Origin: a virus
Lineage: Duplodnaviria > Caudoviricetes
Reading direction: 5' to 3' (one strand)
Virus record (IMG/VR): IMGVR_UViG_2706796186_000001
Location: 128,001-192,000 of that record
DNA: 64,000 nucleotides
Part shown: piece by piece, positions 6,211 through 24,849 of the stretch
Position numbering within the stretch: position 1 is the first letter of the stretch
Layout of the letters: each line of letters opens with the position of its first letter
Notes under the pieces: generated by a model
The model's database searches: none
The model's input: only the letters and a program-made list of their open reading frames with translations
Told to the model about the DNA's origin: nothing
Made by a program: the position numbers and the translations under genes

Positions 6211-6335
6211 TTCCCTACCTTTCACAGTTTCGATTTTATTAGTGACAAACGTCATATAACAAGCCATGTCTGTAAGAAAGCGCGACCCTGCGCTATTTTC
6301 TATGTACCACCTGTTAACACTAAGAGGAATACCCG

Positions 6336-6872: not shown

Positions 6873-6897
6873 CGCCCTGACTATGGTTAGGTAATAT

Positions 6898-6929
6898 AGG
6901 GAGCTTCGGCTCCCTCTTTTATTTTTTTC
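6898..6929 (+). terminator. intrinsic terminator
   Basis: agggagc-ttcg-gctccct followed by a T-rich run. Confidence 0.8.
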
Positions 6930-6943
6930 TTCAAGGAGTGCAC

Positions 6944-8221: not shown

Positions 8222-8353
8222 GAAAGTGCCACCTTAACCATACTGAGCACCACCATGCCTATAATCGACCCCCACAACACATACGCAGGTGGATCATCCT
8301 CGGTAAAGAATTTTGTCGGTACAGAATTGTTCATGGTGATGCCCTTATGGTTA

Positions 8354-8953: not shown

Positions 8954-8995
8954 AACATTTCCTCTAATAAAGAACAACAGTCATAACAACCGTAA

Positions 8996-9034
8996 GAAAA
9001 AAAAGAAAAGCGACCCACCCCCGAAGGAGTGGGT
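8996..9034 (-). terminator. intrinsic terminator closing the radical SAM/Cys-rich operon
   Basis: Minus strand acccactcc-ttcg-ggggtgggt followed by a long T tract, just after the 9040 stop. Confidence 0.85.
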
Positions 9035-9039
9035 ACGAC

Positions 9040-9696
9040 TTAGGCTACACCGTTATCCGCAGCAAGCTGCTTAACTGCGGTGAAGTCTTTTTGTTCCGTG
9101 AGGATACGGATGCGTTGTTTCAACACAGACATGACCATGTGCAGGTCATTGTCACGCGTGATGATTTCCGCATAGAGGGCTTTAACGTCCTCCACCGTCC
9201 ACGGCTCGATAGGCTCGTTGTTCAGCGTCATCCAGTACATCGGGTCAACCCCGGACTGCATGTAGCTTTGCATCGATTCGCGCGACTTCTCGTCAGCTTG
9301 GAACGTCTTGTCACGGAAGGTAATGGGTGCAAACCGTTCCGCGTTATACTTGTCGTTCAGTTTCGGATAAATCGCATTGACTTCCTGATAGAGGTAGTTC
9401 TCCGTCGAGGTCAGCGCGGTACGTACGTGGTCTAAATCAATCTCCAGCACGTCAGCAATAAACTCTTTGGTTTTCTTCATCAGGAATTCAATTTCAACCG
9501 GTGACAGGTCAAAGCCTTTGAGTTTCTCGCGGGCTTTCTTGTCACTCATACCGTTAATCAGATGGTAGTGCAGTAGCAGGCAGAACCCGATACGGTTTTC
9601 CATCTGGTCTTGGTATTCTTCCACGTAGTTACCGTAGCGGTCGATACGCGTGCCCCGTTCGAAATAACGGGCTTTTATTTCGTCGTTACTAAGCAT
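9040..9696 (-). CDS. DUF4376-like protein (putative tail-fibre assembly/accessory protein)
   Basis: C-terminal half ITFRDKTFQADEKSRESM...WMTLNNEPIEPWTVEDVKAL resembles the DUF4376 pattern (F-x-x-D-x-x-S ... W-x-T-x-x-N) common beside tail-fibre genes. Confidence 0.6.
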   Translation of the reverse strand: MLSNDEIKARYFERGTRIDRYGNYVEEYQDQMENRIGFCLLLHYHLINGMSDKKAREKLKGFDLSPVEIEFLMKKTKEFIADVLEIDLDHVRTALTSTENYLYQEVNAIYPKLNDKYNAERFAPITFRDKTFQADEKSRESMQSYMQSGVDPMYWMTLNNEPIEPWTVEDVKALYAEIITRDNDLHMVMSVLKQRIRILTEQKDFTAVKQLAADNGVA

Positions 9697-10232
9697 CCGG
9701 ATTCTCCTGCAATCCCAAGGTCAACCAGCAGACCGAAGTCAATGAACTGGAAATCATTTTCCAACTCTTCGCCCCAGAGCAGTTTGGCCTCTTCTGCTTC
9801 ATCACCCATCTCTTCCAGCGTCTTACGTGCCACTTCGAATTCGTGGTAGAACGCATCGGTCAGGTGTGTACCGCGTAATGCACGCACAGTCACACCAGGG
9901 AAGTTCAGGGCCAGTCCCACAACGTTGGTTGGGTCTGCATCACCGGTAGAACGGCGCAGTACCTGCAACTTGTGTTTTGGGAACGCCACCACACGTTTTT
10001 CGAAACCGGGATTACGTTTCTCGATTTCGACAACGGACTGGTGATCGTCTTCCACGCCCTGTAAAGGCAGGATGACATTCAGGCCATAACGGTTCAACAG
10101 ACGAATGGTGTCATCGTTGAAATCTTCACCCGGCACGATCGCATGGATGTTGTACAGCTTGTGTTTGCGAATGAACGCATCGACAAGGTGAACGTTACGC
10201 CGAGTAAAATTGTGAATCAGCAATGACTTCAT
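9675..10232 (-). CDS. hypothetical protein of the radical SAM operon
   Basis: 185-aa ORF overlapping both neighbours on the same strand; no family recognised. Confidence 0.7.
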   Translation of the reverse strand: MKSLLIHNFTRRNVHLVDAFIRKHKLYNIHAIVPGEDFNDDTIRLLNRYGLNVILPLQGVEDDHQSVVEIEKRNPGFEKRVVAFPKHKLQVLRRSTGDADPTNVVGLALNFPGVTVRALRGTHLTDAFYHEFEVARKTLEEMGDEAEEAKLLWGEELENDFQFIDFGLLVDLGIAGESGCLVTTK

Positions 10233-11541
10233 TCGAGGCTCCGAGTTCTAATTTAAGTTTATCTGCTTTCATGCGGTCACGCACGCAGCTCGCACAGTAG
10301 CACATGGATTTATCGTGCAGGTCGGCGACATTCGTGGTACCGGTTTTCTGATACCAGTATTCGGACACCAACAATTTCGCGGTCGTCCAACCACACTGGC
10401 GTCGCTCAGCATGGTACTCTTTACGCGCTTCCAGCTCGCCGTCACCGTTCTCGTAAGAAGCAGCCGCACAGCTACCGCACGAGTGTTTCATCGGGCAGCC
10501 TAAGCAGGTAGACGGGTAGTTGGTGTACTGCGTCTGAATTTCGTTCAGTAGTTTGTGACCGTCAATGTTCACAATCTCACGCCCACGCAGTTCTGCTACC
10601 GCTGAACGGGTGGTTACGGTTGACATGAAGCGGTTACAGCCGTAAATCTTACGGTCGAAGCCAAGACAGGTCATGTGGGTCAGCGTACCGCAGTAAGGAC
10701 GTACACGGTCTGGGTGCAGACGGGTTGCTTCATCGTCCAGCAACTTCTGACGCCAGTCCGGGTCCCATGTCGCCATGAAGTCCAGCCCATCAGGAATGAT
10801 GTGGGTCAGGATGTTACGTGGTGACTTGTGGTAGCCGTTGTCGACCCAGTAATCGATAACGTCAATCATCTGGTTTGCGATACCCAGAGCCATATCACGC
10901 GACAGAATGTCTTCGTACGTGACGTTACCGGAGATGGTACCACCGCCCGTTTCTTTAATCAGGTGAATCATGCTCTCGCCGTAACGAGGCAGGGTCTCAC
11001 CGGTAAAGGTGGCTTTGATACCGAGTTCTGCAATACCGACAGATTTCAGGTATTGGTAGCCGCGCATCGCCTGCTCGTACGAGCCTTCACGCGAAGTGGT
11101 GAAGATACGATAGCGGTCGTGTACTTCTGGCAGACCATCGATGGACACACCAATCGACAGACGGTCTTTCCAGCGTTCAATGATTTCTTTGCTGATAGGA
11201 CGGTCGAACAAGGTGCCGTTGGTAGAAATAGAGAATACGTACTGGCGGTTGTCGCGCGCCGCTAACTCTTCGGCTGTCTCAAAGACGGCTTTCAGAATCT
11301 TCGGCTGCATAAACGGCTCACCCCCGATGATGTCGATAATGATTTCGGCATCTTCGATGTGACGGTCGCGGTCAAAACACGCATGAATAAAATCGACAGC
11401 GTCATCCACTTTGTTGTTGCGCGGATACTTACGTTCGTAGCAATACGAACAGTCGAGATTACAAGACAGGTTAGTTACGACCTGATACGTGAGTGTGGGG
11501 CGCTGTTTACGCGTCTGCGATGAAGATCGTTCTTCACTCAT
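10195..11541 (-). CDS. radical SAM/SPASM-domain peptide maturase-like enzyme
   Basis: CNLDCSYC (CxxxCxxC), GGEP, STNG, SIDG, HDRYR. C-terminal SPASM-like Cys array (YCG..C..KIYGCNRF...CLGCPMKHSCGSC...C) plus an extra CYCASC. Confidence 0.92.
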   Translation of the reverse strand: MSEERSSSQTRKQRPTLTYQVVTNLSCNLDCSYCYERKYPRNNKVDDAVDFIHACFDRDRHIEDAEIIIDIIGGEPFMQPKILKAVFETAEELAARDNRQYVFSISTNGTLFDRPISKEIIERWKDRLSIGVSIDGLPEVHDRYRIFTTSREGSYEQAMRGYQYLKSVGIAELGIKATFTGETLPRYGESMIHLIKETGGGTISGNVTYEDILSRDMALGIANQMIDVIDYWVDNGYHKSPRNILTHIIPDGLDFMATWDPDWRQKLLDDEATRLHPDRVRPYCGTLTHMTCLGFDRKIYGCNRFMSTVTTRSAVAELRGREIVNIDGHKLLNEIQTQYTNYPSTCLGCPMKHSCGSCAAASYENGDGELEARKEYHAERRQCGWTTAKLLVSEYWYQKTGTTNVADLHDKSMCYCASCVRDRMKADKLKLELGASNEVIADSQFYSA

Positions 11542-12431
11542 TTGATTACCTCATTGCGATGTTTGCGAGCGTGGATCGTGCGATTGATGTAACGGTAGGC
11601 TTCTTGCCCAATGACTTTCGCCAGCATGTTACAACCGCTATCGATTTCCATCTCGACATCCATCGTGTAGCCGATAGACGCATCGGAGTCCAGACGAACC
11701 AGACCGCTGCACGCGTTGCACGACTGCTCAAAGAACTTGCTGATGGAGAACCCAGTTGAGCCATTGTTCATGACATTCAGGCGTTCAATCTGGTCTTCCA
11801 TTTTGTTGTAGCCGAACATGAAGTTCATCACCAAATCTTGGTTCAGAGGTTTCTTCATGCGGTTGTCCAACAGCAGCGTCATGTCTTTGAAGCCGTAGTG
11901 GTGGAGTGCGCGGTGTAAGTCCAGCAGGTCAGTGTGCCAATATTTATCAGCCAACTGCTCACGAGTCACCACGGCCCACGTATGGACGTTGTTCAGCGCA
12001 GCCATCACTTCGAAGGCTTCGAATGCACCATCTTCAACGACACGCCAGAGCGGACGTTCGCTCTTTTTGTATCCATCGAACGACACACAGATACGGTTAA
12101 ACTGTTGCAGCATCGGGAGATGTTCCAGACGCATTTTCAGACCGTTCGTGTACAGCTCGTGAGTGAGATGTGGATAACGGGCTTTGACTTCGGCCAGCAA
12201 TGGCTCAATCTTCCGGGTCGCCATTAATGGCTCACCACCCGTCCAGTTCATCCCTTGTAAAGTCGGGTACTTCTCCAGTTGTTCAAACAGCGCTTCACGC
12301 TGAATTTCCCGACCAACATCTTTTGTGTCCATGTAATACGCTCCGCCGCAGAAACTACAATCCAAATTACACTTGGACGTCGTCACTATCGACAGCTCGG
12401 TAGGGGGACGTATTTGTGGTGCATCGGTCAT
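11538..12431 (-). CDS. second radical SAM enzyme (short, with a truncated Cys-containing C-terminus)
   Basis: CNLDCSFC, TGGEP, YTNG, VSFDG; C-terminal CNAC...C. Stop overlaps the next start (ATGA). Confidence 0.9.
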   Translation of the reverse strand: MTDAPQIRPPTELSIVTTSKCNLDCSFCGGAYYMDTKDVGREIQREALFEQLEKYPTLQGMNWTGGEPLMATRKIEPLLAEVKARYPHLTHELYTNGLKMRLEHLPMLQQFNRICVSFDGYKKSERPLWRVVEDGAFEAFEVMAALNNVHTWAVVTREQLADKYWHTDLLDLHRALHHYGFKDMTLLLDNRMKKPLNQDLVMNFMFGYNKMEDQIERLNVMNNGSTGFSISKFFEQSCNACSGLVRLDSDASIGYTMDVEMEIDSGCNMLAKVIGQEAYRYINRTIHARKHRNEVIK

Positions 12432-12449
12432 TGCAGATTGCTCCAGTTT

Positions 12450-13328
12450 TTAATAGATCGCGAAAAGGGGGTCGTCCTCAAACTTCGCGCCCACATCCAG
12501 AAGGAAATCGGAGTGGTAGGCATCGAGTATTTGATTCAGAACAGCCTGACGGTCGTTAATCCGTTTAAGATCATCGAGTGTCACGCTTCGCGACTTGATG
12601 TTTGAAACTGCCTTTTCTTCGTCAGCTGTTAAGGAAACCTTCGACAGAAGGAAACTTACCAGCTTGCTCAGGTCAGCCTCGGTACCCGGTGCTTCACCGT
12701 AACGCAATTGAACCAAGAACTGCATCCACGGTTTGCGGATACGGCGACTGATTTCATGTGGATCGGTAATCGCTTCGAACTGCCCATCTACCGCATTCCA
12801 GCGAAACTTGTAGCTATACGCCAGTAAGTCAGCCAGACAATGGATACCGAGCGTTTCATAACCTAAGATGTGATGGTATTTTTCCACACCTTTATATTCT
12901 TCCGTGCCGGTCGGTACTACGGTGTACCAGAACGGATTAGAAGACGGGTAGTCCCAGCTCCACTCGCGACGAACCATGGGAATGACGTCCAAATCCGCAA
13001 ACGGCGTGAAGATCATTTCCAAATCCATCGAGTGGTTCAGGACTGCATCAGTAAAGAAATACTTACCGTCAATCAGTCGGCCACTGGCGTTCAGCTCGCC
13101 TTCATTAAACTTCACATGCTGAACAGTGTGCTTACCGATGGAGTAGGTATTCTCTTCGGTGTACTGCTTACGTGTAATATCCCGCCCACGTACCTTAGGC
13201 CATTCGCCTGGCAGCATCGAGATAAGGCGTACTTCGTCAGCGATGTGTGCTTTCACACTGTCGTACGACGAAATGTGTAACGGGAAATTTTGCGTCGTGC
13301 GGTACGCCAAATGGAGGTCGTTCTTCAT
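12450..13328 (-). CDS. hypothetical protein of the radical SAM operon
   Basis: 292-aa ORF with RBS aagga, between the Cys-rich genes and the radical SAM genes. Confidence 0.75.
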   Translation of the reverse strand: MKNDLHLAYRTTQNFPLHISSYDSVKAHIADEVRLISMLPGEWPKVRGRDITRKQYTEENTYSIGKHTVQHVKFNEGELNASGRLIDGKYFFTDAVLNHSMDLEMIFTPFADLDVIPMVRREWSWDYPSSNPFWYTVVPTGTEEYKGVEKYHHILGYETLGIHCLADLLAYSYKFRWNAVDGQFEAITDPHEISRRIRKPWMQFLVQLRYGEAPGTEADLSKLVSFLLSKVSLTADEEKAVSNIKSRSVTLDDLKRINDRQAVLNQILDAYHSDFLLDVGAKFEDDPLFAIY

Positions 13329-13346
13329 GGTTTCTTTATCCTTACT

Positions 13347-13556
13347 TTATCGGTTACCCGCGCCGTAACTGCACCCACCACTGCACGACCAGCTACAGCT
13401 ACCGTTGCAGTTATAATGCGAGAGTGGAAGCCCAGCAAGGTTGTTGGTCGAACTGACCGTGCCGCGTGTGGCGATATAGTTATTGGCCTGTGCGGTCGTG
13501 ATGTAGCCTTCGACGTTCTGCACCCGATCGCGAATGTTTTTCAATGAGATTGCCAT
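13347..13556 (-). CDS. short Cys-rich CXXX-repeat protein C (putative radical SAM substrate, 4 Cys)
   Basis: RBS gagga. Leader MAISLKNIRDRVQNVE; core CNGSCSWSCSGGCSYG. Confidence 0.85.
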   Translation of the reverse strand: MAISLKNIRDRVQNVEGYITTAQANNYIATRGTVSSTNNLAGLPLSHYNCNGSCSWSCSGGCSYGAGNR

Positions 13557-13577
13557 AGGTCCTCACTCGATAGAGTT

Positions 13578-13970
13578 CTATCGACTGCCTGAACAGCCAG
13601 AGCATCCCGTACAACTTGAACTACAGGAACCGGAACAGTTACCGGAGCATGTACCCGAACAACCGGAGCACCCACCCGAACACGAACCAGAACATCCTGA
13701 GCACCCACTGGTACACCCAGCAGTACAGCTCGACGAACATGAGGAACCGCAGCCCCCTGATGCCGAACCGGAACAGCCACCTGAACAGCTAGAGCAACCC
13801 CAGCTACAGGTTCCGCCGCAATCGTAATGAATACGTCCTTGGCCGCCGAATAAGTCGACGTTATTGGTTGCCTTATTACGGATGTAGGTTTGTACCCCAC
13901 CTTCCGTTTTTAAGGAGTTCGCTTCGATCACTGCAATGCGATCCGCGATGTTTCGTAAGTTGATAGCCAT
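13578..13970 (-). CDS. Cys-rich CXXX/CXX-repeat protein B (putative radical SAM substrate, 20 Cys)
   Basis: RBS gggag. Leader MAINLRNIADRIAVIE; core CGGTCSWGCSSCSGG...CSSSCTGCSGCSGSR. Confidence 0.88.
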   Translation of the reverse strand: MAINLRNIADRIAVIEANSLKTEGGVQTYIRNKATNNVDLFGGQGRIHYDCGGTCSWGCSSCSGGCSGSASGGCGSSCSSSCTAGCTSGCSGCSGSCSGGCSGCSGTCSGNCSGSCSSSCTGCSGCSGSR

Positions 13971-13979
13971 TGTTTCTCC

Positions 13980-14369
13980 CTACTGTGGACCAGAGCAACC
14001 AGAGCAACCGGTGCAGCTGGAAGAACACGACCCGGCGCAACCACCGCCACACTTACCACTGCACGAAGACGCACAGGTACCTGAGCAACCTGAACAACCC
14101 GAACACCCACCGCCGCAGTTAGAAGAACAGCTACCCACGCACGTAGAAGTACAGGTTCCTGCACAGCTAGTACAGCTTGCAGAACACCCGTTAGAACACG
14201 ACCAGCTACAACTGCCGCCACAATCCAGACGGGAGGGAGACCACCCACTGAACGAGTCCGCAGCGTTGTAAGCTTTCGATGCAACCTGCCCGTCTACACG
14301 AGCCCCGGTAGCATAGTTTGCTTCCACATTGTTAACGCGGTCGCGTATGTTTTTCATTGAAATCGCCAT
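13980..14369 (-). CDS. Cys-rich CXXX/CXX-repeat protein A (putative radical SAM substrate, 21 Cys)
   Basis: RBS aagga. Leader MAISMKNIRDRVNNVE; core CGGSCSWSCSNG...CSSSCTGCSGCSGPQ. Confidence 0.88.
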   Translation of the reverse strand: MAISMKNIRDRVNNVEANYATGARVDGQVASKAYNAADSFSGWSPSRLDCGGSCSWSCSNGCSASCTSCAGTCTSTCVGSCSSNCGGGCSGCSGCSGTCASSCSGKCGGGCAGSCSSSCTGCSGCSGPQ

Positions 14370-14385: not shown

Positions 14386-14424
14386 TAAAAAAATGAGGAC
14401 GCTGCCATAATGACAGCACCTCAT
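14386..14424 (-). terminator. intrinsic terminator-like hairpin between the fibre genes and the Cys-rich operon
   Basis: Minus strand atgagg-tgctgtca-tta-tggcagcg-t-cctcat followed by a T run; TATG lies at the loop. Confidence 0.6.
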
Positions 14425-14434
14425 GTAATAAGTG

Positions 14435-15634
14435 TTATCGTGAACCCGCTTCGGCTTGTACGTCGTCGCGAGAAGTCAGGCTGCTGTTGACGTGTACTGC
14501 CGCCTGAACCACACCGCCGTACTGCTTGTGGAGATAGTTCGGGTGTGGGTTATCTGCGTTAACGTGGTTCTGGAGATTCTGCGACAGGGTGTTAATGGAG
14601 TTCTGCAATCCAGCAACTTGCTGTTTCAGTGCATTCAGCTGACCAGAGAGATCCTGAATCTGCTGCTGCGTATCGGAACCGGCGGATTCCAAATCACTGA
14701 TGCGCTGCTTGAGCCCATTGATGACTTGGTTCTGGTCATTGATCATCTTCTGGAGTTGTAACACCAGAGAGTTCAGGTCGGCCTGTTGTAACGCCGCCTT
14801 TTGGTAGTTCAATGCCACCGAATTCAGTTGGTCATTCCACGAACCGAGTGCACTGACCACCGCATCGATACGCGCACCGAGTGCTGTGTCCGCTGCTTTC
14901 AAATTACCGATGTCAGCGAGGACAGCGTTAATGGCAGTCTGAACCGTTTGAATCAGCGCGCGAATTTCGGTTTCAGTGAGACCGTTCGCCTGATGAATAT
15001 CCAGTGCGTGAACATTACCTTTGGCATCGATGTGCGATTGTAGCGCCGCCATCATCTGGGTTTGCATGTCAGACATGGCTGCCAGAATCTGCTGGAGCTG
15101 AACTTCGTTACCGGAGTTAATCGCATCGGTCATCAACGCGAGTTGCGTAATGATGTATTCGAAACCAAACAGGTCGCCGAGGTCTTTAAAGGCCGGAGCC
15201 GCTGCAAAGGTATCCGGGACATTACGCAGGTCAGCGAAGTCAACTTTGCGGTCTTCAAGGTTGGCATCAGCCAACGCCTGTTTAATCGCAGAGATAACCG
15301 CCGACTGTGGGCCACCGACAACCTGTGCAAGACAGACGATATCGGTTGGGATAGCCGGGTTAGTGACGACCACACCCATACAGATTTCGCGGTTCTTAGC
15401 AAGCTTCATGTACGCCGGATGGATGTAAATCAGCTCGTAGTCGGTACCGCGTTTATAAATGGTGTTGGGTTGATTGGCAGGCCGCATACGGAACGTATCC
15501 GCAAAGAACGGCCCTGCTGGGAAAGCGAACGCACGGTTGACCTTCCCCCCACCTAACACAACCGGGACATTGACCGCGTTACTGGACGCAGCCCCTGTCA
15601 GGTCAAGTGGGTATTGAAATAGAATATCTGGCAT
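14435..15634 (-). CDS. short tail-fibre/baseplate-attachment-like coiled-coil protein
   Basis: N-terminal YPLDLTG..GPFF..GTDYEL domain shared with the three giant fibres; long heptad region; fibre-type HVNADNPHPNY motif. ATG 15634 with RBS gggag. Confidence 0.7.
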   Translation of the reverse strand: MPDILFQYPLDLTGAASSNAVNVPVVLGGGKVNRAFAFPAGPFFADTFRMRPANQPNTIYKRGTDYELIYIHPAYMKLAKNREICMGVVVTNPAIPTDIVCLAQVVGGPQSAVISAIKQALADANLEDRKVDFADLRNVPDTFAAAPAFKDLGDLFGFEYIITQLALMTDAINSGNEVQLQQILAAMSDMQTQMMAALQSHIDAKGNVHALDIHQANGLTETEIRALIQTVQTAINAVLADIGNLKAADTALGARIDAVVSALGSWNDQLNSVALNYQKAALQQADLNSLVLQLQKMINDQNQVINGLKQRISDLESAGSDTQQQIQDLSGQLNALKQQVAGLQNSINTLSQNLQNHVNADNPHPNYLHKQYGGVVQAAVHVNSSLTSRDDVQAEAGSR

Positions 15635-15681
15635 GGCCAAACTCCCTTAGTGAGACGTCCTTGTCTCGACGTGTTAGATGG

Positions 15682-18600
15682 TTACGGCAACTTAGGCATA
15701 AGATTGACCGTCAGTTTTGACGGGGTGACCGTTCCGCCGTAATAGTTGACCCCGTTGCCGATGTACAACGCGTTGTCGGCAATAAGCATGGGTATCGGTT
15801 GGCGGAAGATGACATCTCCATGAACAATCGGGAAATAATCATCGATGGAAACACCTGCTGGCATGGCGACTTTATAAACATCAAGCACACCACCAGTGAT
15901 ACGCCCCGCCGCACCCTGTACGTTCGTTATGGCACGAATGGCCACAGTAGCAGCATCGGAGATATAGAACACCGTCGCTGTGCCGTTATCCACGTTGGAG
16001 ACACTGAACGCAGCGAACGCGGTGGTCTGACCCCCGTTGATACCATTAAACACGAATGTGTTTTTGACCCCCACCTCGGCAGCAAGTGTGACCTCAGCCA
16101 GTGCAGAAGAAAACGTTGCAGAAACATCGAGGTTGGCGTTGGTACATCCAATGGTGCCGGAGCCCAAAGAGTAACCACTCTTCAATTTGATTTTCACCGT
16201 CGGGGTCGACGGGGTAATCTCCACAATCATTTTCCACGCAATCGAGATGACAGCCGACATCCCCGGAATACCCACCAAATACGCATTGTCTACATCAGAA
16301 GCCTGACCAAAGTTGGCACCCTTCATCGTGAACTTCTTGTAGTCTTTAGGCAAGGTAGCGACCGGCGCATCCCGCAGCAACTCGATAGGAACCTTGTGGC
16401 TTTGAGACGCGAAGACCGGGCCAATCTGCGACATATCCAGATACCCATCACCGGTAGCCGCCGGAGCAGAAAGGGGTTGCTTACGCAATAGCCCCAGTCG
16501 CGAAAGCCGCGCTTCACTGTCCACATTCACATCGTGGCTGTAGACCGTGGCGGTATGCTCCGCCAACTGTTTCAACTCGCCCAAGCGTTTCACTTTTGTG
16601 AACTCAGACGACAAGATACGCTGACTGTCGGTGACTACCGTCCCGATAAACAACCGGGTATCCGTATCGGGCATTTTCTGCGTCAAAAGCTGGTATTCCG
16701 GTTTGCCGTTCACCACCGCCGCGTGCATGTAGAACGTACGGTTTTGGTACGCACCGGGGAACAACGTCTTGAGGTTCTGGTTATACGCATCCAACGTGTA
16801 ATAGTCGGAACCAAACCGTAAGCTCTCAGACTCGGTGATGTACAGCTCCCACCCTTCTGCGGTTTTTACCCCAGCAACGATTGCAACATTCCCCGCAGGG
16901 GTGTAGTTTGTCACCCCTGCCGCAACAAAGTCGTTCGGTGGTGCGCTTGGGCCTGCGAAATAAGACGGTGAAATCACCTGCCCGTTTGACCGCAGCATTC
17001 GCTCCCCAACAAACGAAAGGATGGTAGCATAGTTGTAAAACGTGCTGCCGAGCACCCCCGCCTTCGTCGCCGTCAGCTTACCTCCGTTCAAACTGAAAAT
17101 CAGCTCAAGGTGGTACGCCGCGGATGACCCCACGACCTGCCGAATCATGAAGTTCGGCAAGTGCATGATGCCCGTACCGTCACCTTTCTCGTAGAAGATT
17201 GGTTGGCCCATTCTGCTGCTGTGCCCAGAATAGTTGGTATTCTGAATGAGTTGCAGGTTGCTGTACGTCGCGATGTTGGTGTATACAACGTCAGCTGTGG
17301 TCGTGACCAGCTGAACAACCCCGTTCACGACGCTCGGGTAGATTTGGAACGTAACATTCCCTAACCGCTTATTGCCGTTATAGAGTGCGTAGTACGACAT
17401 TTGTGCAATCCAAATCGGATTGGCATCAAGGGGTCGAATCGCCCACACGGAAAAGAGGAGGTTAATCGGGTTGGCAATGCTGTCCGCCACCTCACCTGCC
17501 GGTGCTGCCGCTTTTAAGGCCGCCGTTATCTTGTTCCATGTGTCGGAGGACAACGTAAGGGTATCGGCTTTTGGTACCGCACCCACGGCCTGGTACCGCT
17601 TCACACCGGGACCGTTCCAATACGCGCCGTTTAACTTACCCGACTGGAGCGTGGATGTCGCACACCACGTCATGTCTGCCAAAGCGTAGTAATCGTCAAC
17701 CGAGAAATTGCGGCGCACGTTACTCGGCCCTGCGCCCAAGTACGCGGGACCGTATGTTGTGTTTGGGTCTACCTCGACATACACCGCGCTGTTGGCGTTG
17801 GCGGGACTAAACAGATACGCATTATTGCCCAGATACACCGGATGGGATTGACCGACAGAATACACCGAGCCAATACCGCCCGTGAACTGCCAGTTCGCCA
17901 GAGAGGTGTAACCGCTTTTGTGGTCTCCTGCGATAAAGTCGTAGAAGTCCGCGTCCATTGTCGAGTGTGCTAACCCGTTGGGGAGGGTGTCCTGAGACTG
18001 ATCGTAAATAGACCATGCACGTTGGCCAACCCCTTGGAACACCCGCATGCGGTTATCAGCATTGCCGTACGGGAACCGAACTTTCCAGCCTGCCTCTTTG
18101 AGCTTTGTCCCAGTGGCAAGATACACATCGTCCGCATCGATTTTGAATGGGAAGATATCTGCATTATCCAGCGAGACCGTCAACGTATCCATGTCAATCT
18201 GGAACGAAGTCGCCCAAGTGAAACGGCCATACGAGTCATCAGGGCTCAACAATAACAGGGTGCTCAAAATACCTACCCTGGTCATGTTCTCGCGCTGCGC
18301 TACCGCATACGTCGCGATGTTGTGTGCGATGTTGCGCAGGTTACCCCAGCGTACTTTACCGGCCTCGGTCACATAGGTGGTGCCCTGTGTCGCAGGGTCG
18401 GTCGCATCGGTGTCTGTGTTAGCGCGCAGCAACACTGAGATACCGTTGACGCTGTTCCCCCCTTTGAGAGCAGCAGGGGTGTAAACCATCTTGTCCCCAC
18501 TGACTGACCCTACTAACGCATAGACACTGTACTGGGTATTGGTCAATTCCAGATGAAGAATGTAGACCTTCCCTTTATACACGATGGTTTGTTCGCGTGT

Positions 18601-20673
18601 CTGATCGCCGAGGTAGCCACTGACCGTGCCGTTCGCGTCGAACGAGGCAGGGAATTCACTCCGATACACCTGTTTGTGTTTGGTGTAGTTCAGTGTTCCT
18701 TCTAGCATGACTGTGTAGAAATATCCGTCGCTGCCTAAACAGACAAGTGCCGCATCGCCTGACGCAACCAGTGTGAGTAGCCGGACACCGGGATACTTAC
18801 TCATTCCCGCTGGGTGGTATGGGAACGACGTCTGCTGCTCCCCTGCAATTGACCCATCGTTGTTTACACGGGCATAGCCGTAGTAAATGCGATCGGTGTT
18901 CGGCAATCCGTCGTTTGCATTGCGTAACAGGTAAACGATGTCTCCTTCCTGCTTGACTGCCCCCAACCCTTTCCAGCTCAGCTGTTTCGCAAAACCGGCA
19001 AAATTCCCCACCGTTGGAATAGGCAGGAACCCACTGTTACCGTACGAGGCACCCCCAGTCGTCCACGACGGCAACAGACCGTCCAACACGTCTTTGTACG
19101 TATTAAGGCGCTGTTGTACGTTATAGCCCTGCTTTGACGTCACCACTTTGTTCGTGGTGGTATCAATCGCATCCCACAGTTGCAACAGACCTGCGTCCGT
19201 ATCAGACGCCGTTGGTACGCCCGTCAGGTCGGCAAACGTGTGCGTGTGGTTTGCCAGAGCCTTATTTGCCAACACCGCACGAATGGCGTTGGTCAACGGT
19301 TTCTCAGCAGGCGCGGTGTTGTTGATGTTACCCACACCTAAATCGGCGGTCGTTAAGGTAAGGGACTGTTTCGTACCGTCATCAATGAACTTCTTCCCGT
19401 TAATGGTGTACGTGTTGTCCACGTAATCATCCAGCGTCTTTTTCAGGACGTTAACAGCATACTGCGAAATCGCGGTACCCGAAGAAATATTTGCAGACAG
19501 GTTGGTGATAGCAAACAGCCCCGGCACTTTGTCAGTTGCCGTGGGCAGTTGCGCGTTCATGGTCAGTGGAGAAGACTGCTTCGCTGTACCGAATACCTTG
19601 ATGGTGTCGGTTGGAGAAAAGTAAGCGTTCCCCGGTAAGAGTTTTACTTCGGACAGGTACAACGAGACCATGTCCGGTGTGACCAGATATGCACCGTTAA
19701 AGATGGGTGCCACTGCGCCGTTGAGCACATAAGCCGTGTTCAGCCCCGAGCCCAACTCAACCCCCACACCCCGTTCGTTACTGTCTGCATCAGCAGTGAT
19801 GTTGATAGCACGGGTGGTGGTAATAAGGAACTTATCGCCTTGCAGGGTGATAACATGGCTCGAGTCGGCGGTACGGAATGTCAACGCACCGTTATTCAGC
19901 ACCTTGAGGCGACCACGCAGTTCACCAAGCACCACAGGCATCAGGGTATCGATGTGAGCTTGCTGAATGCCGTTTGCTTTCATGATAGCGACTAACTCAT
20001 CCAGCGTTTTACCGAATGCCTTCGTCGAGTCTACCGCTTTGGTCAGTACCTTTAACGCCCCAATCTCATCCGCAGTGTATTGGTGTGCGTTTTTGATACG
20101 ATGGTGGCTGTACATGTTGTCGTCGAAAATCTTTTTACCGTTGGCAAAAATCAAATCGGTGACCTCGGCGTACGCCACATCCATATCGCCTGCCCGCTTA
20201 ATCAAACCTTGACGGATATCATCCAGCGCTTTCACGACTTCATCGCGGAGCAGGGCTTCATCTAAGTTGGCAGGTGGGTCAATTGCAGGAACCACTGGTG
20301 CATAACGCATCAGTTCAGACCAGTCGGTGTTACGCGGGTCTTTGATGTCCTCTTTCACCAAGAACTTGCCAATCTCGGTCTGTGGTACGCGGTATTCGCG
20401 ACCAATCGAATAGATCGTGTAGTCAACAGAGGTGTCTCCGTTAATCAACATAATCCCGCCGTAGATTTGGTCTTTCATTGCGACAGCGGCTTCTTTATAA
20501 TAGTAGCCGAGGTAGTAATCCAGACCCTCAATGAGCTTCACGCCTGCGCTGTTTTTCAGCTCAAGCCCGGTACGGAAGAACGGCCCCTCAGGAGGGATGA
20601 CCACATTGTATTTGTTCGGATATGTGGTCGTCAGTAGCGTACCGGTAAATTTGGCTACGTTCGTGCTCGCCAT
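15682..20673 (-). CDS. giant tail fibre protein (1663 aa)
   Basis: GPFF..GLDY N-terminal domain; LPTAT..G, LGVGNINNT..KP and HTHTFADL fibre motifs; beta-rich distal domains. Confidence 0.8.
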   Translation of the reverse strand: MASTNVAKFTGTLLTTTYPNKYNVVIPPEGPFFRTGLELKNSAGVKLIEGLDYYLGYYYKEAAVAMKDQIYGGIMLINGDTSVDYTIYSIGREYRVPQTEIGKFLVKEDIKDPRNTDWSELMRYAPVVPAIDPPANLDEALLRDEVVKALDDIRQGLIKRAGDMDVAYAEVTDLIFANGKKIFDDNMYSHHRIKNAHQYTADEIGALKVLTKAVDSTKAFGKTLDELVAIMKANGIQQAHIDTLMPVVLGELRGRLKVLNNGALTFRTADSSHVITLQGDKFLITTTRAINITADADSNERGVGVELGSGLNTAYVLNGAVAPIFNGAYLVTPDMVSLYLSEVKLLPGNAYFSPTDTIKVFGTAKQSSPLTMNAQLPTATDKVPGLFAITNLSANISSGTAISQYAVNVLKKTLDDYVDNTYTINGKKFIDDGTKQSLTLTTADLGVGNINNTAPAEKPLTNAIRAVLANKALANHTHTFADLTGVPTASDTDAGLLQLWDAIDTTTNKVVTSKQGYNVQQRLNTYKDVLDGLLPSWTTGGASYGNSGFLPIPTVGNFAGFAKQLSWKGLGAVKQEGDIVYLLRNANDGLPNTDRIYYGYARVNNDGSIAGEQQTSFPYHPAGMSKYPGVRLLTLVASGDAALVCLGSDGYFYTVMLEGTLNYTKHKQVYRSEFPASFDANGTVSGYLGDQTREQTIVYKGKVYILHLELTNTQYSVYALVGSVSGDKMVYTPAALKGGNSVNGISVLLRANTDTDATDPATQGTTYVTEAGKVRWGNLRNIAHNIATYAVAQRENMTRVGILSTLLLLSPDDSYGRFTWATSFQIDMDTLTVSLDNADIFPFKIDADDVYLATGTKLKEAGWKVRFPYGNADNRMRVFQGVGQRAWSIYDQSQDTLPNGLAHSTMDADFYDFIAGDHKSGYTSLANWQFTGGIGSVYSVGQSHPVYLGNNAYLFSPANANSAVYVEVDPNTTYGPAYLGAGPSNVRRNFSVDDYYALADMTWCATSTLQSGKLNGAYWNGPGVKRYQAVGAVPKADTLTLSSDTWNKITAALKAAAPAGEVADSIANPINLLFSVWAIRPLDANPIWIAQMSYYALYNGNKRLGNVTFQIYPSVVNGVVQLVTTTADVVYTNIATYSNLQLIQNTNYSGHSSRMGQPIFYEKGDGTGIMHLPNFMIRQVVGSSAAYHLELIFSLNGGKLTATKAGVLGSTFYNYATILSFVGERMLRSNGQVISPSYFAGPSAPPNDFVAAGVTNYTPAGNVAIVAGVKTAEGWELYITESESLRFGSDYYTLDAYNQNLKTLFPGAYQNRTFYMHAAVVNGKPEYQLLTQKMPDTDTRLFIGTVVTDSQRILSSEFTKVKRLGELKQLAEHTATVYSHDVNVDSEARLSRLGLLRKQPLSAPAATGDGYLDMSQIGPVFASQSHKVPIELLRDAPVATLPKDYKKFTMKGANFGQASDVDNAYLVGIPGMSAVISIAWKMIVEITPSTPTVKIKLKSGYSLGSGTIGCTNANLDVSATFSSALAEVTLAAEVGVKNTFVFNGINGGQTTAFAAFSVSNVDNGTATVFYISDAATVAIRAITNVQGAAGRITGGVLDVYKVAMPAGVSIDDYFPIVHGDVIFRQPIPMLIADNALYIGNGVNYYGGTVTPSKLTVNLMPKLP

Positions 20674-20696
20674 GAAAAAACACTCCTACGTATTGA

Positions 20697-20749
20697 TAAA
20701 AGGTTACCGCCCTCTCGGGCGGTAGCTTGCGGGTATCACGCCCGCAAGC
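20697..20749 (-). terminator. tandem hairpins / attenuating terminator between fibre genes
   Basis: gcttgcggg..cccgcaagc immediately followed on the minus strand by taccgccc-gaga-gggcggta and a short T run. Confidence 0.6.
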
Positions 20750-20759
20750 GTGTACCCCT

Positions 20760-23700
20760 TTATACCCACTGACCGAAGTCAGTTCCATCTGTGGTGCGCT
20801 CAGCGTCCATCTTAGCCTGCAACACATTCCACAGCCTCGTGGTCATGTGTAGCGGGTTTATCCTTTTCGCTGTATAGCGGTCAGCGACAAACCACATCGC
20901 ATCCGCTACGGTATTTTCCGTTATCGTGGTGAGTAGTGTACCGCCCGCATCGTAGAGTTCGTACGTGAACTCCAGTTTCAACGGATCGGATGTGTACCCC
21001 GGAAGGTACGCCAGCTGAAGTTTCAAATCCCCACGACGGGCCGGTACCGGAACGCCGAGTTCACCGCCAAGGGATGAAGCGTAAGCCACATTTATCACCT
21101 GTCCACCAATGGCAAGCTGACGCACCGCATTGGCTTGTGTGCCTTTGACGATTTTCAGTTTGGCCACTTTGGAGGACTGCGGGAGATTGTACTCAACCAG
21201 CATGCCTGAGATAAGGAAGTTCGTGCCGTCAGAGCTGCCGGGTTTTCCGAACCAGTTGCCGTTCGTGTCGACAGAGTGAACCGACTGGAGCAGCGCATCC
21301 CGGTTAAACGCCAGTGGCAGGTAACCTGCGTGTGACGCATGGAAGGAACGACACCCCATCGGGACTAACTGGTATTCGGTATACCGCACGTCAGGTACGA
21401 ACACTCCCGCAGGTAACACCACGGTCGCATTCTTCACCGACGTGTTCGGCAGCACACCCGAATCGGCATACGACTCGAACAGCGAACGAAGGTACTGGTA
21501 GGCATCTTCAACAAACCCAATCCCGTCCAGCGGAGCCACAGACCCCAGAAGGCTACAGACACTCGTACCACCACCCAACGGTGGCAGTTCAAGTCCAACG
21601 AAGCCACCCATCAGTCCCCGGACATCAACATCGAACTGAATCTCCAGCTCATTAATGAGCAAAGAGCCATCGACGTCGTTTGGATTGCCCGCGAAGTACA
21701 CGCTGAACACCGACAGTTTCCGAAGCGTGACGTTGTACGAGTAACGCACCGCCAATCTCGGAGAGCCTGCTTTCAGTGTGGTCAAATCCATCACCCCCAA
21801 GACCGCTGACGCTTCATTCTTCCGAAGTGACGTCGTCTTGGAATACAGGATGTTGGATTCAAACGTTGGCAATGTCGTATTGACACCCGCATGGGTAGCG
21901 ATAGCGTTAACGTAGCCGTAATCCGGTTCAGTCACACCATCGAGTGGCACGCGCAGATAGCGGTTTCGGTAATCCGCAGGCACACTCCCAAGGGTTGGGC
22001 TGGCAAACAACAAGGCCGGTAACGGTTGTGCGAACAGTCCGTTGGTCTGGTATTCTTCGTACACTAACCCACCTTGGAACGTCGGTGCCCCATTCGCCTT
22101 CGGGTTGGATGGGGTGAACCACCATTGCGGTGTTTGCTCCGTCGTCTCCAGCAGCATGTACGCTTTTTTCGTGGTGCTGTTGCGTGACATCTGCGCCAGT
22201 CCGTACACCGTCTCGGCTCCGGCAGTGACTTCACCGTAGAGGGCCGATGGTGAATTGAACCGCAGTTTACCAATCGGCAACATCGCCAGATTATCCGTCA
22301 GTGTCCAATCACGGGCCGCTGGGATATGTTGTTGCAAACTGGCTATATGGTCGGACGCCTCGTTGGAAATCCCGTAATCGCGCATCATCGGGAAACTGAC
22401 GGTCGGGGTAGTGATGCCGCCCGCAGGGACATCAACCACACCAATCAAGGCGGTTTCCGGTGAAACCTCATTTGTCGGTTGCGGTTCAGCACGACTGTAC
22501 ATGGATTGAGTTACCATGTTCAGATACAGGAAGTGACGATTACCGAACGTTGGGGTCATGAACTCCCCAAGCTGGGTGATCGGCGTCCCGACGTCACTGC
22601 GGTAAATCGGCAGAGATTCGTCATAAACCTCAAAGGCCATCGCCGCAGCTTTCGTCGCGTCATTGCAGTCCGCACGAATCCCCAAGCAGGCAGATTGTTT
22701 TGCGGAGTCCACATCGACTTCCAAGAAGAACGGCGAGTTGCCCGTCCCCACTTCCTGACCATCCAGATAGACCGTCACCTTACCACCCGCCACGATATAC
22801 AGCCTCAGCGTTCCTGTGTACGATTTTAAGCGTAGTTTGGACAGCAGAGAGATAACGGACAGGTTACCCATCCCATTGGCACTCAAGCCGATAGGCGTCG
22901 CTTTTAAGGCGAAGTTGGGTTTGGAGGAAATGGCGGAGAAGTCAAAGTTCGCTGCGGTGTTCTTCACCGCAGGCGTCCAGTTACGCTCCATCGTGTTGTT
23001 CGGACTGAACCAGTTGAACATCGGGGTGGTTTCGAGGTTAATCGACCCACTTACCTTCCCCTCAGCCCGGTCATTCCCCCGCAGATAGAAATACTGGAGG
23101 TCTTTGACTTGAAGGATACGGCCAGATGCAACCGACCACGTTGAAGCATCGATGATGGAGAAATCTGTTGACACTCCGGTTTTCACCGACTTCAACGCAT
23201 CACTAATCGCATCCAAACGATCGCTCAAGCGCTTCATGACGTTCGGTGTCACACCTTTACTGCCGGACAGACCATCGTCCAAATCGGTGTACCGTCCCAG
23301 ACCCTCAGTGGCGTTCGTTGCCAGTGGCAAGTTTAAGGATGCAAATGTGTGCTTGTGTCCTTTATCACTCAACCCATCCATTGCGGTAGATTGGTCAGCA
23401 GAGACCGGTTTGTTGACGTCAGCAGTGTTATCTGCTTGGCTCAGACCAATATCTGACTTGGTCATCACACGCGCCCCGTCGTCCATTGGTTTGGAGTTGA
23501 GCATGGTGGTTTTCGCCACATAGCCCGACGCCTTACCTTCATACGGCTGCAACGAGTCTGGGGTCGAAGCAACACCACTGACTTCGTCGCCCACACCCGA
23601 CTTTAACACCGCGGTACCTTTTACGGTGGTGGTGGCAGACGGTAGCGTCAGTGAGGCTTTAACCGGGTCGGCTTTTGAACCTTTACCAGTGACTGAAATA

Positions 23701-24839
23701 CCACCACGCCCCTGAACGTAAATCTTCTGGTCGTCCGGGTCGCTGGTTTGTCCGCTCTCAGTCGGTTGGTATTTCATCAGTAACGTGGTCGTGAGCAACA
23801 CTTTCCCGTTCAGGGTCAGCTTGTCCATCCCGAGCGCATTACCTGATGACTCGATACGCAGGGTGTTCGTTCCCGACGTCCACTCCATGAAACGGGTAGT
23901 GGTATCGTTGGCGTCGTAACCTGCGGCCAGAATAACCGCCCCGTTGCTTTTAATCGTAAAGGCTGTATCGGTGAAGGTGATTTCCGATGTTCCGCTTTTC
24001 GACTTGAACAACGACCGGTTGGCAGCAAGTTGCTGAATAAAGACACCGGAGACATCTTTGCACGCCCACTTCTCGATATACTTATCGATATCGCTTTGCT
24101 GGAGCCCCAAGGCGCGGATTTCAGCCGTCAGGGTACGCAAGGTCTTCCCGTAAGCTAAGAACGTGTCTGGGGTCTTCAGGTTCGCAGGATGTGCGTTCGC
24201 TTGTGCGGACGTCGTCCCGTGGGGGTTGTGTGCCGCAATGTGTGCAGGGTAGTTAAAGGTGGTGATTTCCTTTGCTAATCCGGCAACGGTGACTTTCAGT
24301 GCCGCAAGCTTTGCCTTAACGGCATTGTTCGCGGCCTCAGAATCCAGCTCAACGTCATGCACGGCTGACGCCACGTATTTTTTATTCAGCAGGTCATGCC
24401 ATGAAGTGGCAGCCGGTTTAGGGGGGAAGAACGTCGGGCGATTATCAACCTTAAACCAATCTGCATCCACAGGGTTATTCAGGTATTTAATCAGTTCATC
24501 GAGGATGTCAATGAACGGCGAATAGAACGTATCCCCCAACGCTTGACCTACAAAGGTCAAAGACCCACCGATTTTCGGATTGATGAGTTGGATACCGCAC
24601 GCAACAGGTGTGGCCACCGACTCATTCAGTTCTGGCATCTGGTAGGTTATTTCATAATCGACCCCACGGGTAAGCGGGGTCGTACTGCCGGACGCAGTCA
24701 CCACTAAGCTGACTTCGAAGAACGGGCGGTTTTTCAGAATCACCACCCGGTCATCGGTCTTCTCGTTTGTGATGATGCGTTCTTCCTTGAACGCATTTGC
24801 GGGGCTAGTACCCTTCCAGTCGTAAGGATACGAAACCAT
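20760..24839 (-). CDS. giant tail fibre protein (1359 aa)
   Basis: YPYDWKG..RPFF..RGVDY; HIAAHNPH; IGLSQADNTADVNKPVS; HKHTFASL. Paralogous N-terminal half. Confidence 0.8.
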   Translation of the reverse strand: MVSYPYDWKGTSPANAFKEERIITNEKTDDRVVILKNRPFFEVSLVVTASGSTTPLTRGVDYEITYQMPELNESVATPVACGIQLINPKIGGSLTFVGQALGDTFYSPFIDILDELIKYLNNPVDADWFKVDNRPTFFPPKPAATSWHDLLNKKYVASAVHDVELDSEAANNAVKAKLAALKVTVAGLAKEITTFNYPAHIAAHNPHGTTSAQANAHPANLKTPDTFLAYGKTLRTLTAEIRALGLQQSDIDKYIEKWACKDVSGVFIQQLAANRSLFKSKSGTSEITFTDTAFTIKSNGAVILAAGYDANDTTTRFMEWTSGTNTLRIESSGNALGMDKLTLNGKVLLTTTLLMKYQPTESGQTSDPDDQKIYVQGRGGISVTGKGSKADPVKASLTLPSATTTVKGTAVLKSGVGDEVSGVASTPDSLQPYEGKASGYVAKTTMLNSKPMDDGARVMTKSDIGLSQADNTADVNKPVSADQSTAMDGLSDKGHKHTFASLNLPLATNATEGLGRYTDLDDGLSGSKGVTPNVMKRLSDRLDAISDALKSVKTGVSTDFSIIDASTWSVASGRILQVKDLQYFYLRGNDRAEGKVSGSINLETTPMFNWFSPNNTMERNWTPAVKNTAANFDFSAISSKPNFALKATPIGLSANGMGNLSVISLLSKLRLKSYTGTLRLYIVAGGKVTVYLDGQEVGTGNSPFFLEVDVDSAKQSACLGIRADCNDATKAAAMAFEVYDESLPIYRSDVGTPITQLGEFMTPTFGNRHFLYLNMVTQSMYSRAEPQPTNEVSPETALIGVVDVPAGGITTPTVSFPMMRDYGISNEASDHIASLQQHIPAARDWTLTDNLAMLPIGKLRFNSPSALYGEVTAGAETVYGLAQMSRNSTTKKAYMLLETTEQTPQWWFTPSNPKANGAPTFQGGLVYEEYQTNGLFAQPLPALLFASPTLGSVPADYRNRYLRVPLDGVTEPDYGYVNAIATHAGVNTTLPTFESNILYSKTTSLRKNEASAVLGVMDLTTLKAGSPRLAVRYSYNVTLRKLSVFSVYFAGNPNDVDGSLLINELEIQFDVDVRGLMGGFVGLELPPLGGGTSVCSLLGSVAPLDGIGFVEDAYQYLRSLFESYADSGVLPNTSVKNATVVLPAGVFVPDVRYTEYQLVPMGCRSFHASHAGYLPLAFNRDALLQSVHSVDTNGNWFGKPGSSDGTNFLISGMLVEYNLPQSSKVAKLKIVKGTQANAVRQLAIGGQVINVAYASSLGGELGVPVPARRGDLKLQLAYLPGYTSDPLKLEFTYELYDAGGTLLTTITENTVADAMWFVADRYTAKRINPLHMTTRLWNVLQAKMDAERTTDGTDFGQWV

Positions 24840-24849
24840 TTGCTTCTCC

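Follow-up and report, generated by a model that had tools for sequence, protein, structure and literature searches.

A candidate radical SAM/SPASM maturation cassette for cysteine-repeat proteins in the tail-fibre module of a jumbo phage

The 64,000-nucleotide stretch analysed here (the window; positions 128,001 to 192,000 of the IMG/VR virus record IMGVR_UViG_2706796186_000001) comes from an SPN3US-like jumbo myophage and carries, on the minus strand between positions 9040 and 14369, eight genes for three short Cys/Ser/Gly-repeat proteins (precursors A, B and C), two radical S-adenosylmethionine (SAM) enzymes of 297 and 448 aa, the larger with a SPASM domain, and three accessory proteins of 292, 185 and 218 aa. 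With moderate confidence, this operon is taken to be a radical SAM maturation cassette for small structural proteins of the tail-fibre apparatus rather than for secreted peptides. The same Cys repeat ends true tail fibres in many unrelated phages, so that the enzymes probably cross-link a fibre part of the virion. Radical SAM/SPASM maturation of Cys-repeat substrates is known from elsewhere; what is new here is its placement in a phage tail-fibre module, and the literature searched yielded no paper on this operon, on gp161-166 of phage SPN3US or on radical SAM/SPASM enzymes linked to tail fibres.

If this is correct, the cassette would provide the first case of enzyme-installed covalent cross-linking of a virus structural protein of the type found in peptides that are made by ribosomes and modified after translation (RiPPs). 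Radical SAM peptide chemistry, hitherto associated with natural products and a few cellular proteins, would become a widespread tool of virus morphogenesis: approximately 200 viral contigs carry relatives of the enzyme, typically near a Cys-repeat protein, and in the lineages examined the surrounding genes are of the tail-fibre/baseplate type. A catalogued but uncharacterised family of CXXX-repeat proteins would gain a biological role, and the product would be a new fibre-tip material resisting both reduction and proteolysis, with a bearing on phage stability, on host recognition and on engineered receptor-binding proteins.

Cysteine-repeat runs and SPASM enzymes among tail-fibre genes

An exhaustive phmmer search returned approximately 48 clusters (at 50% identity) of relatives of the 448-aa enzyme at E < 1e-30. 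For each of them the best family is TIGR04115 or PapB, and none reaches the cut-off, the nearest cellular and viral ones scoring 125-195 bits; judged from sequence, the 448-aa enzyme belongs to a sister clade that has not been modelled. Scanning of IMG/VR gave 196 relatives on viral contigs. When viral and cellular loci are taken together, 85 of the 97 examined contain, no more than approximately 6 kb from the gene for the enzyme, a co-oriented open reading frame (ORF) with a CXXX run of 6-92 Cys.

In several of these loci the run is covalently part of a tail fibre. It forms the C-terminus of proteins that match tail-fibre PHROGs at 1e-54 (L034), 2e-40 (L036) and 3e-32 (L037), the matches covering their N-terminal parts, and of a fourth such protein (L038) with weaker matches (2e-9); in each case a related radical SAM gene lies downstream on the same strand. 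In L056 the run stands behind an SGNH lipase/esterase domain, and in L055, an unrelated myovirus-type contig, two genes, one for a baseplate wedge and one baseplate-like, have the CXXX protein encoded downstream of them, in the slot usually occupied by fibre genes in myoviruses. The link with the precursors of the window is most direct in L028, where two proteins of 268 and 288 aa are encoded just upstream of an enzyme of the clade. The first matches both a tail-fibre PHROG and phrog_6085, to which all three precursors belong, and the second (P0225) matches phrog_6085 alone, with an N-terminal part that is fibre-like by eye. A profile of the precursors aligned with P0225 at 98.5% probability, columns 20-50 of the N-terminal region included, and the aligned P0225 segment directly before the core ('...DADTLNSQHVTYYTC') has NNADLFGG....HYDC as its precursor counterpart. 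Even with a score inflated by repeat composition, this pre-core alignment remains specific.

The whole cassette recurs, rearranged, in a 27-kb phage contig (L026) in the order SPASM enzyme, 185-aa homolog, three precursors, 292-aa homolog and second radical SAM enzyme. It is flanked by tail-fibre genes with Peptidase_S74 domains and by another paralog of the phrog_2163 family, and its precursors, two long and one short, have the same N-terminal region. By profile comparison, the 185-aa protein is matched at 98.4%, and the C-terminal half of the 292-aa protein is homologous to a 322-aa protein of L026 (93.6%). That two long precursors and a short one have been kept as a set in two distant lineages (L026, 8809-9789; window, 13347-14369) suggests distinct roles for the members of the set, and also that the three are required together, perhaps as a heterotrimer.

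Within the SPN3US-like phages conservation is strict. The synteny check called for in an earlier note on this DNA found the cassette 3' of the gp167 homolog, with unchanged gene order, in 17 of 17 IMG/VR loci, and the same order is seen in seven GenBank phages of five genera (SPN3US, the phiEaH2-like Stratton, CR5, Kwan, Caitlin, pEa_SNUABM_29 and pSal-SNUABM-04). Altogether, in each of the 25 related loci examined in detail the cassette comes after the fibre/baseplate paralogs. All three precursor genes are kept in every locus, approximately 62 phage records carry the SPASM enzyme, and among the related phages no locus was found with the radical SAM genes and without the Cys-rich ones. Immediately upstream of the cassette lie four fibre/baseplate paralogs of 401, 1663, 1359 and 1011 aa (14435..27885, minus strand), which share an N-terminal domain of approximately 200 aa (phrog_2163) and have very different C-terminal parts. 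Their SPN3US orthologs, gp167-170, are virion proteins and candidates for baseplate or tail-fibre components (PMC5694885), and gp168 resembles phiKZ gp131 (PMC5105663).

The proposal of the earlier note that the products are fibre parts thus gains strong comparative support, from a homologous pre-core segment and CXXX core that form the C-terminus of tail fibres in other phages, and from a rearranged cassette that still sits among fibre genes. On this comparison, the recurring unit is a CXXX run with a SPASM enzyme inside a tail-fibre module, the run often being covalently part of the fibre; in the SPN3US-like phages the fibre-like part would have shrunk to approximately 50 residues, so that the module now consists of three small proteins.

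As to the size that CXXX proteins may attain, the extreme cases are a 480-aa protein with 92 Cys in a single run on a viral contig (L039, 3831-5273) and, in assemblies of 'Candidatus Termititenax' and Margulisiibacteriota, 660-aa proteins with approximately 60-70 Cys (L110, 3405-5408; L079, 7297-10251).

The precursors and their reading frame

The three Cys/Ser/Gly-repeat proteins with a common leader, reported in the earlier note, were recovered as members of a single PHROGs family of unassigned function (phrog_6085): precursor A (13980..14369; 129 aa, 21 Cys; match at 1e-48), precursor B (13578..13970; 130 aa, 20 Cys; 1e-50) and precursor C (13347..13556; 69 aa, 4 Cys; 4e-29), all on the minus strand. 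They share an N-terminal region of 47-51 aa, the first Cys being at residue 47-51, and in the whole genome of 240,761 bp this region is carried by just these three ORFs. In precursor A 49 residues precede a core of CXXX/CXX repeats with the 21 Cys; in precursor B the 50-aa N-terminal region ends with NNxDxFGG....HYD and is followed by a core with the 20 Cys; precursor C consists of the common region and the opening motif alone (C-N-G-S-C-S-W-S-C-S-G-G-C).

The cores are made of 29% Ser, 26% Gly, 25% Cys and 9% Thr, with 0-1 Lys/Arg and, in all 38 distinct cores, that of precursor A included, neither Asp nor Glu. Successive Cys are spaced by 4 (623 cases), 3 (119) or 8 (12) residues, and Ser or Thr occupies position +1 in 78-97% of the repeat units. 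Every core opens with C-[GN]-G-[ST]-C-S-[WF]-x-C, the aromatic residue being invariant. Among orthologs, type A always has 21 Cys, type B 20-23 and type C 4, and over five phage genera 21 Cys columns of type A and 19 of type B are at least 90% conserved.

Repetitive DNA of this kind is open in several frames. With orthologs from five genera, the ratio of nonsynonymous to synonymous substitution rates (dN/dS) of the core was 0.05 for type A and 0.013 for type B in the claimed frame, against 1.6-2.9 in four other frames and approximately 0.3 in the codon-aligned antisense frame, values obtained from few usable sequence pairs and with synonymous sites near saturation. The claimed reading frame of the precursor ORFs is real. 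Two antisense 'PEQPEQ' ORFs (13534-13827 and 13936-14271, plus strand), considered as possible genes, were rejected, their dN/dS being well above that of the claimed frame.

In public records the annotated ORF is often in another frame or on the other strand. Misannotations across the Cys genes include SPN3US gp166, pSal-SNUABM-04_165 and _166, CR5_157 and KWAN_183, and records with such artefact ORFs miss at least one real precursor gene. Examples are L003 6606-6941 (SPN3US gp166, in a shifted frame of the same strand) and, in L001, 16610-16753 and 16897-17232. A search with precursor A in a set of 5.8 billion proteins returned three matches, a scarcity explained by these genes being rarely called.

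The earlier note had recognized, in a leader and a Cys-rich core beside a SPASM enzyme, the layout of sactipeptide and ranthipeptide RiPP clusters, and this layout is indeed present, with TIGR04115 and PapB as the nearest families. It lends itself to an interpretation as a classical RiPP, in which a host protease or an unrecognised phage protease would remove the leader and the cross-linked peptides would be freed at lysis to act outside the cell as bacteriocin-like, signalling or anti-competitor agents. Some N-terminal regions do have a Gly-Gly-like site (FGG or FSG) approximately 8 residues from the start of the core, in this phage the next gene downstream of the operon is that of an endolysin, and lysis would make an exporter unnecessary. 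The site, however, is not conserved in type C, nor in type A of Derbicusvirus and Wellingtonvirus, and the endolysin is not a constant neighbour either, head-protein genes being found in its place in SPN3US, whereas adjacency to fibre genes is conserved. As the earlier note had stated, no protease, exporter or immunity gene is recognisable by Pfam, NCBIfam or PHROGs searches, which could miss a divergent element; nor did these searches reveal a signal feature for secretion. Furthermore, homologous cores are elsewhere built into tail-fibre proteins of 250-480 aa, and a run that is so often a covalent part of a fibre fits poorly with a diffusible peptide. A classical RiPP is therefore regarded as unlikely, the least probable of the explanations weighed here.

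The radical SAM enzymes and the likely chemistry

Both enzymes named in the earlier note, one short radical SAM protein and one with a SPASM domain, were borne out by the hidden Markov model search, with Pfam Radical_SAM matching each of them. The 448-aa enzyme (10195..11541, minus strand) is the most conserved product of the cassette (59-81% identity across genera). Its radical SAM triad (C27/C31/C34) and a complete SPASM set (C284, C302, C346, C349, C355, C358 and C383) are invariant in 12 orthologs and across 22 members of the clade; C292 is also invariant, as is a further C-terminal CxCxxC (C414/C416/C419). The cluster motif begins at residue 27, leaving no room for an N-terminal RiPP recognition element (RRE), and an RRE of the PqqD-like type was not found by Pfam, NCBIfam or PHROGs searches; the predicted folds of the 292- and 185-aa proteins match neither an RRE nor a protease. 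By profile comparison the best match in the PDB is CteB (5wgg, E 2.8e-15), and anSME is also among the solved relatives.

The 297-aa enzyme (11538..12431, minus strand; Pfam Radical_SAM at 2e-11) has CxxxCxxC at C21/C25/C28 and a GGEP motif. Another three of its Cys (C238, C241 and C267) are invariant and may hold an auxiliary cluster. It is related to the radical SAM core of the 448-aa enzyme (hhalign 96%), and its nearest solved relatives are peptide-modifying radical SAM enzymes, namely TigE, CteB, SkfB, ChlB and YydG. Its counterpart in phage pSal-SNUABM-04 (pSal-SNUABM-04_162; L001, 14499-15293) is annotated as a protein of 264 aa with the start placed after CxxxCxxC; the conserved alignment sets the true start 33 codons upstream, giving 297 aa with the cluster motif at residues 21-28. 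Two Seoulvirus-like IMG/VR contigs (L017, 4392-5303, and the same place in L018) encode an additional short radical SAM paralog of 303 aa between precursor genes A and B, which brings the radical SAM genes to three and hints at a pairing of enzymes with precursors. In P0081 (L027, 3834-5840) and P0090, proteins of 634-668 aa, one chain begins with a MoaA-like radical SAM domain and has as its C-terminal part a SPASM enzyme belonging to the phage clade, an arrangement that suggests a fusion of the two enzyme types.

The CXXX-repeat system (enzyme TIGR04115; targets TIGR04117/TIGR04118 and PF27846), which to our knowledge is catalogued but not biochemically characterised, shares several features with the phage cassette: a SPASM enzyme that lacks an N-terminal RRE lies beside proteins whose long Cys-X3 repeats have many Ser, Gly and Thr residues, and the opening motif has a hydrophobic residue in its second unit (C...C-[ST]-G-L-C, to be compared with C.G[ST]CSW.C in the phage). 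The hallmarks of TIGR04115 are found in the 448-aa enzyme, which has CxxxCxxC and the seven-Cys SPASM domain, and in its surroundings, with three CXXX targets encoded on the same strand no more than 3 kb away. In L008 a CXXX protein has as its neighbour a true TIGR04115 enzyme (467 bits), which is 26% identical to the 448-aa enzyme (E 3e-23). The phage differs in adding a second radical SAM enzyme and proteins with a cluster-less radical-SAM fold, with no known fold and with DUF4376, and in having three short precursors with a lineage-specific N-terminal region. In the NCBIfam search none of the precursors matched TIGR04117 and TIGR04118 was faintly matched by precursor C only (E 0.09, 12.8 bits against a cut-off of 35). 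No precursor matched PF27846, in a copy of Pfam that also missed proteins with a precomputed PF27846 hit; P0225 has such a hit, a weak one.

With the ranthipeptide system PapB/PapA (freyrasin) the cassette would have in common a SPASM enzyme that acts repeatedly on CX3-type repeats and small thioether macrocycles, but the PapA product is a small peptide and not a fibre-associated protein. The closest experimental precedent is CrpC of Methanococcus voltae, an enzyme whose substrate CrpA, a Cys-repeat protein of 29 kDa, receives ranthionine links from it (PMC13692751). There too a SPASM enzyme, a protein-sized Cys-repeat substrate and paralogous substrates (CrpA and CrpB have their first 47 residues in common) come with no identified protease or exporter (PMC13692751). 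CrpC is unlike the phage enzyme in having an RRE, in acting on repeats with a C-X-X-Q/D motif and in being archaeal and chromosomal, and the match to its family (TIGR04463) stays at 57.1 bits against a cut-off of 525. CteB (5WGG) is a sactipeptide thioether synthase with three [4Fe-4S] clusters and, like the phage enzyme, a SPASM domain; it differs in its N-terminal RRE and short SCIFF-type peptide substrate, and the match to it is restricted to the radical SAM core (profile positions 11-179).

A structural product could also be obtained by a different chemistry, such as the oxidation of Cys or Ser to formylglycine (as by anSME), epimerisation, C-methylation or a cross-link at the Trp/Phe of the opening motif, with the Cys serving as disulfides or metal ligands. 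YydG is an epimerase and TigE a cyclopropyl synthase, and both are among the nearest solved relatives of the 297-aa enzyme, as anSME, besides the thioether-forming CteB, is of the 448-aa one; the invariant aromatic residue of the opening motif and cores without an Asp or Glu acceptor would also fit such a chemistry. By contrast, the best families of the SPASM enzyme are all thioether-forming or Cys-rich-peptide maturases (TIGR04115, PapB, SCIFF, CcpM and QhpD), and constraint on the cores is strongest for how many Cys there are and how they are spaced, as expected if each Cys reacts. This alternative is accordingly given a rather low probability, and thioether formation is preferred.

Proposed maturation, accessory proteins and genomic setting

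According to the mechanism favoured here, the two long precursors and their short paralog would be made late in infection along with the fibre genes, and their N-terminal region (47-51 aa), together with the opening motif, would steer them to the 448-aa SPASM enzyme. By travelling along the CXXX repeats, this enzyme would make intramolecular thioether links (of the sactionine or ranthionine type) to neighbouring Ser, Thr or Gly, yielding a ladder of small rings, that is a rigid rod or knob resistant to reduction and proteolysis. The 297-aa enzyme might carry out a second modification or act on a subset of sites or precursors; the 292- and 185-aa proteins would be helpers absent from the virion, either holding the substrate or serving as partners of the enzyme, and the DUF4376 protein an assembly factor resembling fibre chaperones. 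The matured products would then join the fibre or baseplate periphery built by the gp167-170 paralogs. We infer that the enzymes divide the labour in this way, that the N-terminal region is retained and that the products are incorporated into the virion. More tentatively, it can be envisaged that many tailed phages enzymatically harden or shape the distal, host-contacting part of their fibres by having a non-virion SPASM enzyme staple a CXXX module into a thioether-ring ladder, the module of the SPN3US-like phages being three proteins, possibly a heterotrimer, attached to the gp167-170 complex through an N-terminal helix and a fibre-type segment. In the HK97 capsid, the isopeptide chainmail provides covalent cross-links that reinforce a virion protein and that form autocatalytically; the phage cassette would instead use dedicated non-virion enzymes, and act on a fibre part rather than on the capsid.

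Several observations weigh against this proposal. Mass spectrometry (MS) of SPN3US virions identified 86 proteins, gp167-173 included, and none of gp161-166 (PMC5694885). A tblastn search of 50,697 phage records with the N-terminal region had, at E <= 10, hits in this lineage only and found no tail fibres beyond it, so that its likeness to fibres is based on motif resemblance and on the profile alignment with P0225; Cys-repeat composition itself partly inflates the profile match to fibre-fused cores, and an N-terminal part as short as approximately 50 aa could be a cleaved leader, as in RiPPs. The earlier note had likened the layout to the CXXX-repeat systems TIGR04114/TIGR04115. Membership of the 448-aa enzyme in TIGR04115 was not upheld, the score being 126.6 bits against a cut-off of 350 in what is the best of 70 NCBIfam matches, and TIGR04114 had no match at E <= 0.1. 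The second-best NCBIfam match, to PapB (NF047865), also misses its cut-off (125 bits against 340). PapB is reported to join Cys to Asp or Glu (PMC9413430, PMC10739248), the sole chemistry characterised for this nearest named family. Links of this type are excluded by the absence of Asp and Glu from the phage cores, which leaves Ser, Thr and Gly as the only plausible partners, and the thioether chemistry itself is proposed from family resemblance only.

The virion data can be read in more than one way. In the deposited SPN3US record the three true Cys ORFs, at 6130-6522, 6533-6937 and 6953-7159 of L003, are unannotated and gp166 is in the wrong frame; the true ORFs being absent from the annotation, the non-detection of gp161-166 is weak evidence either way as far as the precursors are concerned. 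It says little also because the cores are nearly devoid of tryptic sites and cross-linked peptides would escape a standard search. Lys and Arg are present in the N-terminal regions, from which tryptic peptides are to be expected. More generally, gene callers routinely miss the Cys ORFs or call artefacts in their place, and the proteins are therefore absent from the databases used for virion MS. For the enzymes and helpers, non-detection fits with non-virion maturation factors. SPN3US lends itself as a test system, given that amber mutants, virion and infected-cell proteomics and cryo-electron microscopy work exist.

The same data would be accommodated by a non-structural role, in which the Cys-rich proteins would be metal- or Fe-S-binding, metallothionein-like factors, or transient scaffolds or chaperones of fibre assembly, absent from the particle and either modified by the radical SAM enzymes or used by them as a source of sulfur or clusters. 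A core with approximately 25% Cys among small neighbours resembles metal-binding proteins, three of the eight proteins of the cassette have a radical-SAM fold and would depend on Fe-S supply, and a metal-related role has been suggested for CrpA (PMC13692751). Yet the pairing of CXXX runs with a SPASM enzyme of the maturase type, seen in most of the loci, points to the run as a substrate, its fixed place at the C-terminus of tail fibres is hard to square with a transient factor, and the missing annotation and the 0-1 Lys/Arg per core account for the silence of the SPN3US list. The probability assigned to such a role is small, and close to that given to a different chemistry.

Of the accessory proteins, the two unknowns of 292 and 185 aa reported in the earlier note are both present, and their homologs are confined to contigs of jumbo-phage size; together with the DUF4376 protein, they were found by tblastn against 160 related loci in SPN3US-like phages only. 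The 292-aa protein (12450..13328, minus strand; phrog_8030) is predicted by AlphaFold2 to adopt a confident fold (pLDDT 87.7) with no match in the PDB by Foldseek (the best VIA match has Z 4.2 over approximately 50 residues), with just its own ortholog in BFVD and with no match in the ESM Atlas. For the 185-aa protein (9675..10232, minus strand; phrog_7988; pLDDT 89.1) the prediction is a partial (beta/alpha) barrel of the radical SAM type without the cluster cysteines, matched by VIA to a domain of PFL-AE (3can, Z 9.5), SuiB (Z 8.6), CteB (Z 8.0) and many other radical SAM enzymes. Profile-profile comparison showed no link with the two phage radical SAM enzymes, and the fold is therefore a structural lead only, at middling Z values of 8-9.5. 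The last 38 nucleotides of the SPASM gene are shared with the gene for this protein, which may be a degenerate enzyme that serves as a partner subunit.

The last gene of the operon (9040..9696, minus strand; phrog_8169) encodes the 218-aa protein that the earlier note had described as DUF4376-like, and PF14301 is indeed matched by its C-terminal part (residues 113-202; 39.8 bits against a cut-off of 25). The SPN3US ortholog is gp161, which is outside the virion proteome. The note had placed the operon between fibre genes and a gene of the fibre-assembly type; the fibre neighbours stand, and the link of the DUF4376 protein with fibre assembly is weak, being drawn from PHROG matches (tail-fibre, E 3e-4; tail, E 6e-4).

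The region is closest to that of Salmonella phage pSal-SNUABM-04 (97% identity), followed by Erwinia phages pEa_SNUABM_42 and _43 (96%; Machinavirus), and the size of the genome is in line with the approximately 240 kb of SPN3US-like phages. All eight ORFs of the earlier note are present at the coordinates given above for each gene. They are separated by 9-21 nucleotides or overlap by 4, 38 and 22, and the three small ORFs, like the gene for the 292-aa protein, each have a Shine-Dalgarno-like site ahead of them. The bounding hairpins noted at 14386-14424 and 8996-9034 were located as terminator-like hairpins on the minus strand. One (14398..14420), which separates the gp167-like fibre gene from the first of the precursor genes, has a stem of 10 pairs and then TTTTTT; the other (9013..9034), with 9 pairs, 6 of them G-C, and a T-rich tail, marks the end of the operon and lies upstream of the gene for the GH108 endolysin.

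Among the neighbours of the cassette, the 401-aa fibre/baseplate protein encoded upstream has a long heptad-like Gln/Leu-rich stretch, with the terminal segment '...NPHPNYLHKQYGG...'. The endolysin gene (8354-8977, minus strand) has an antisense ORF of 243 aa (8255-8986, plus strand), which is unlikely to be a gene. Further along, two adjacent paralogs on the plus strand (6336-6872 and 6938-7444; phrog_4862) give weak matches to virion structural protein families, and may correspond to the abundant family of SPN3US head-protein paralogs that includes gp160.

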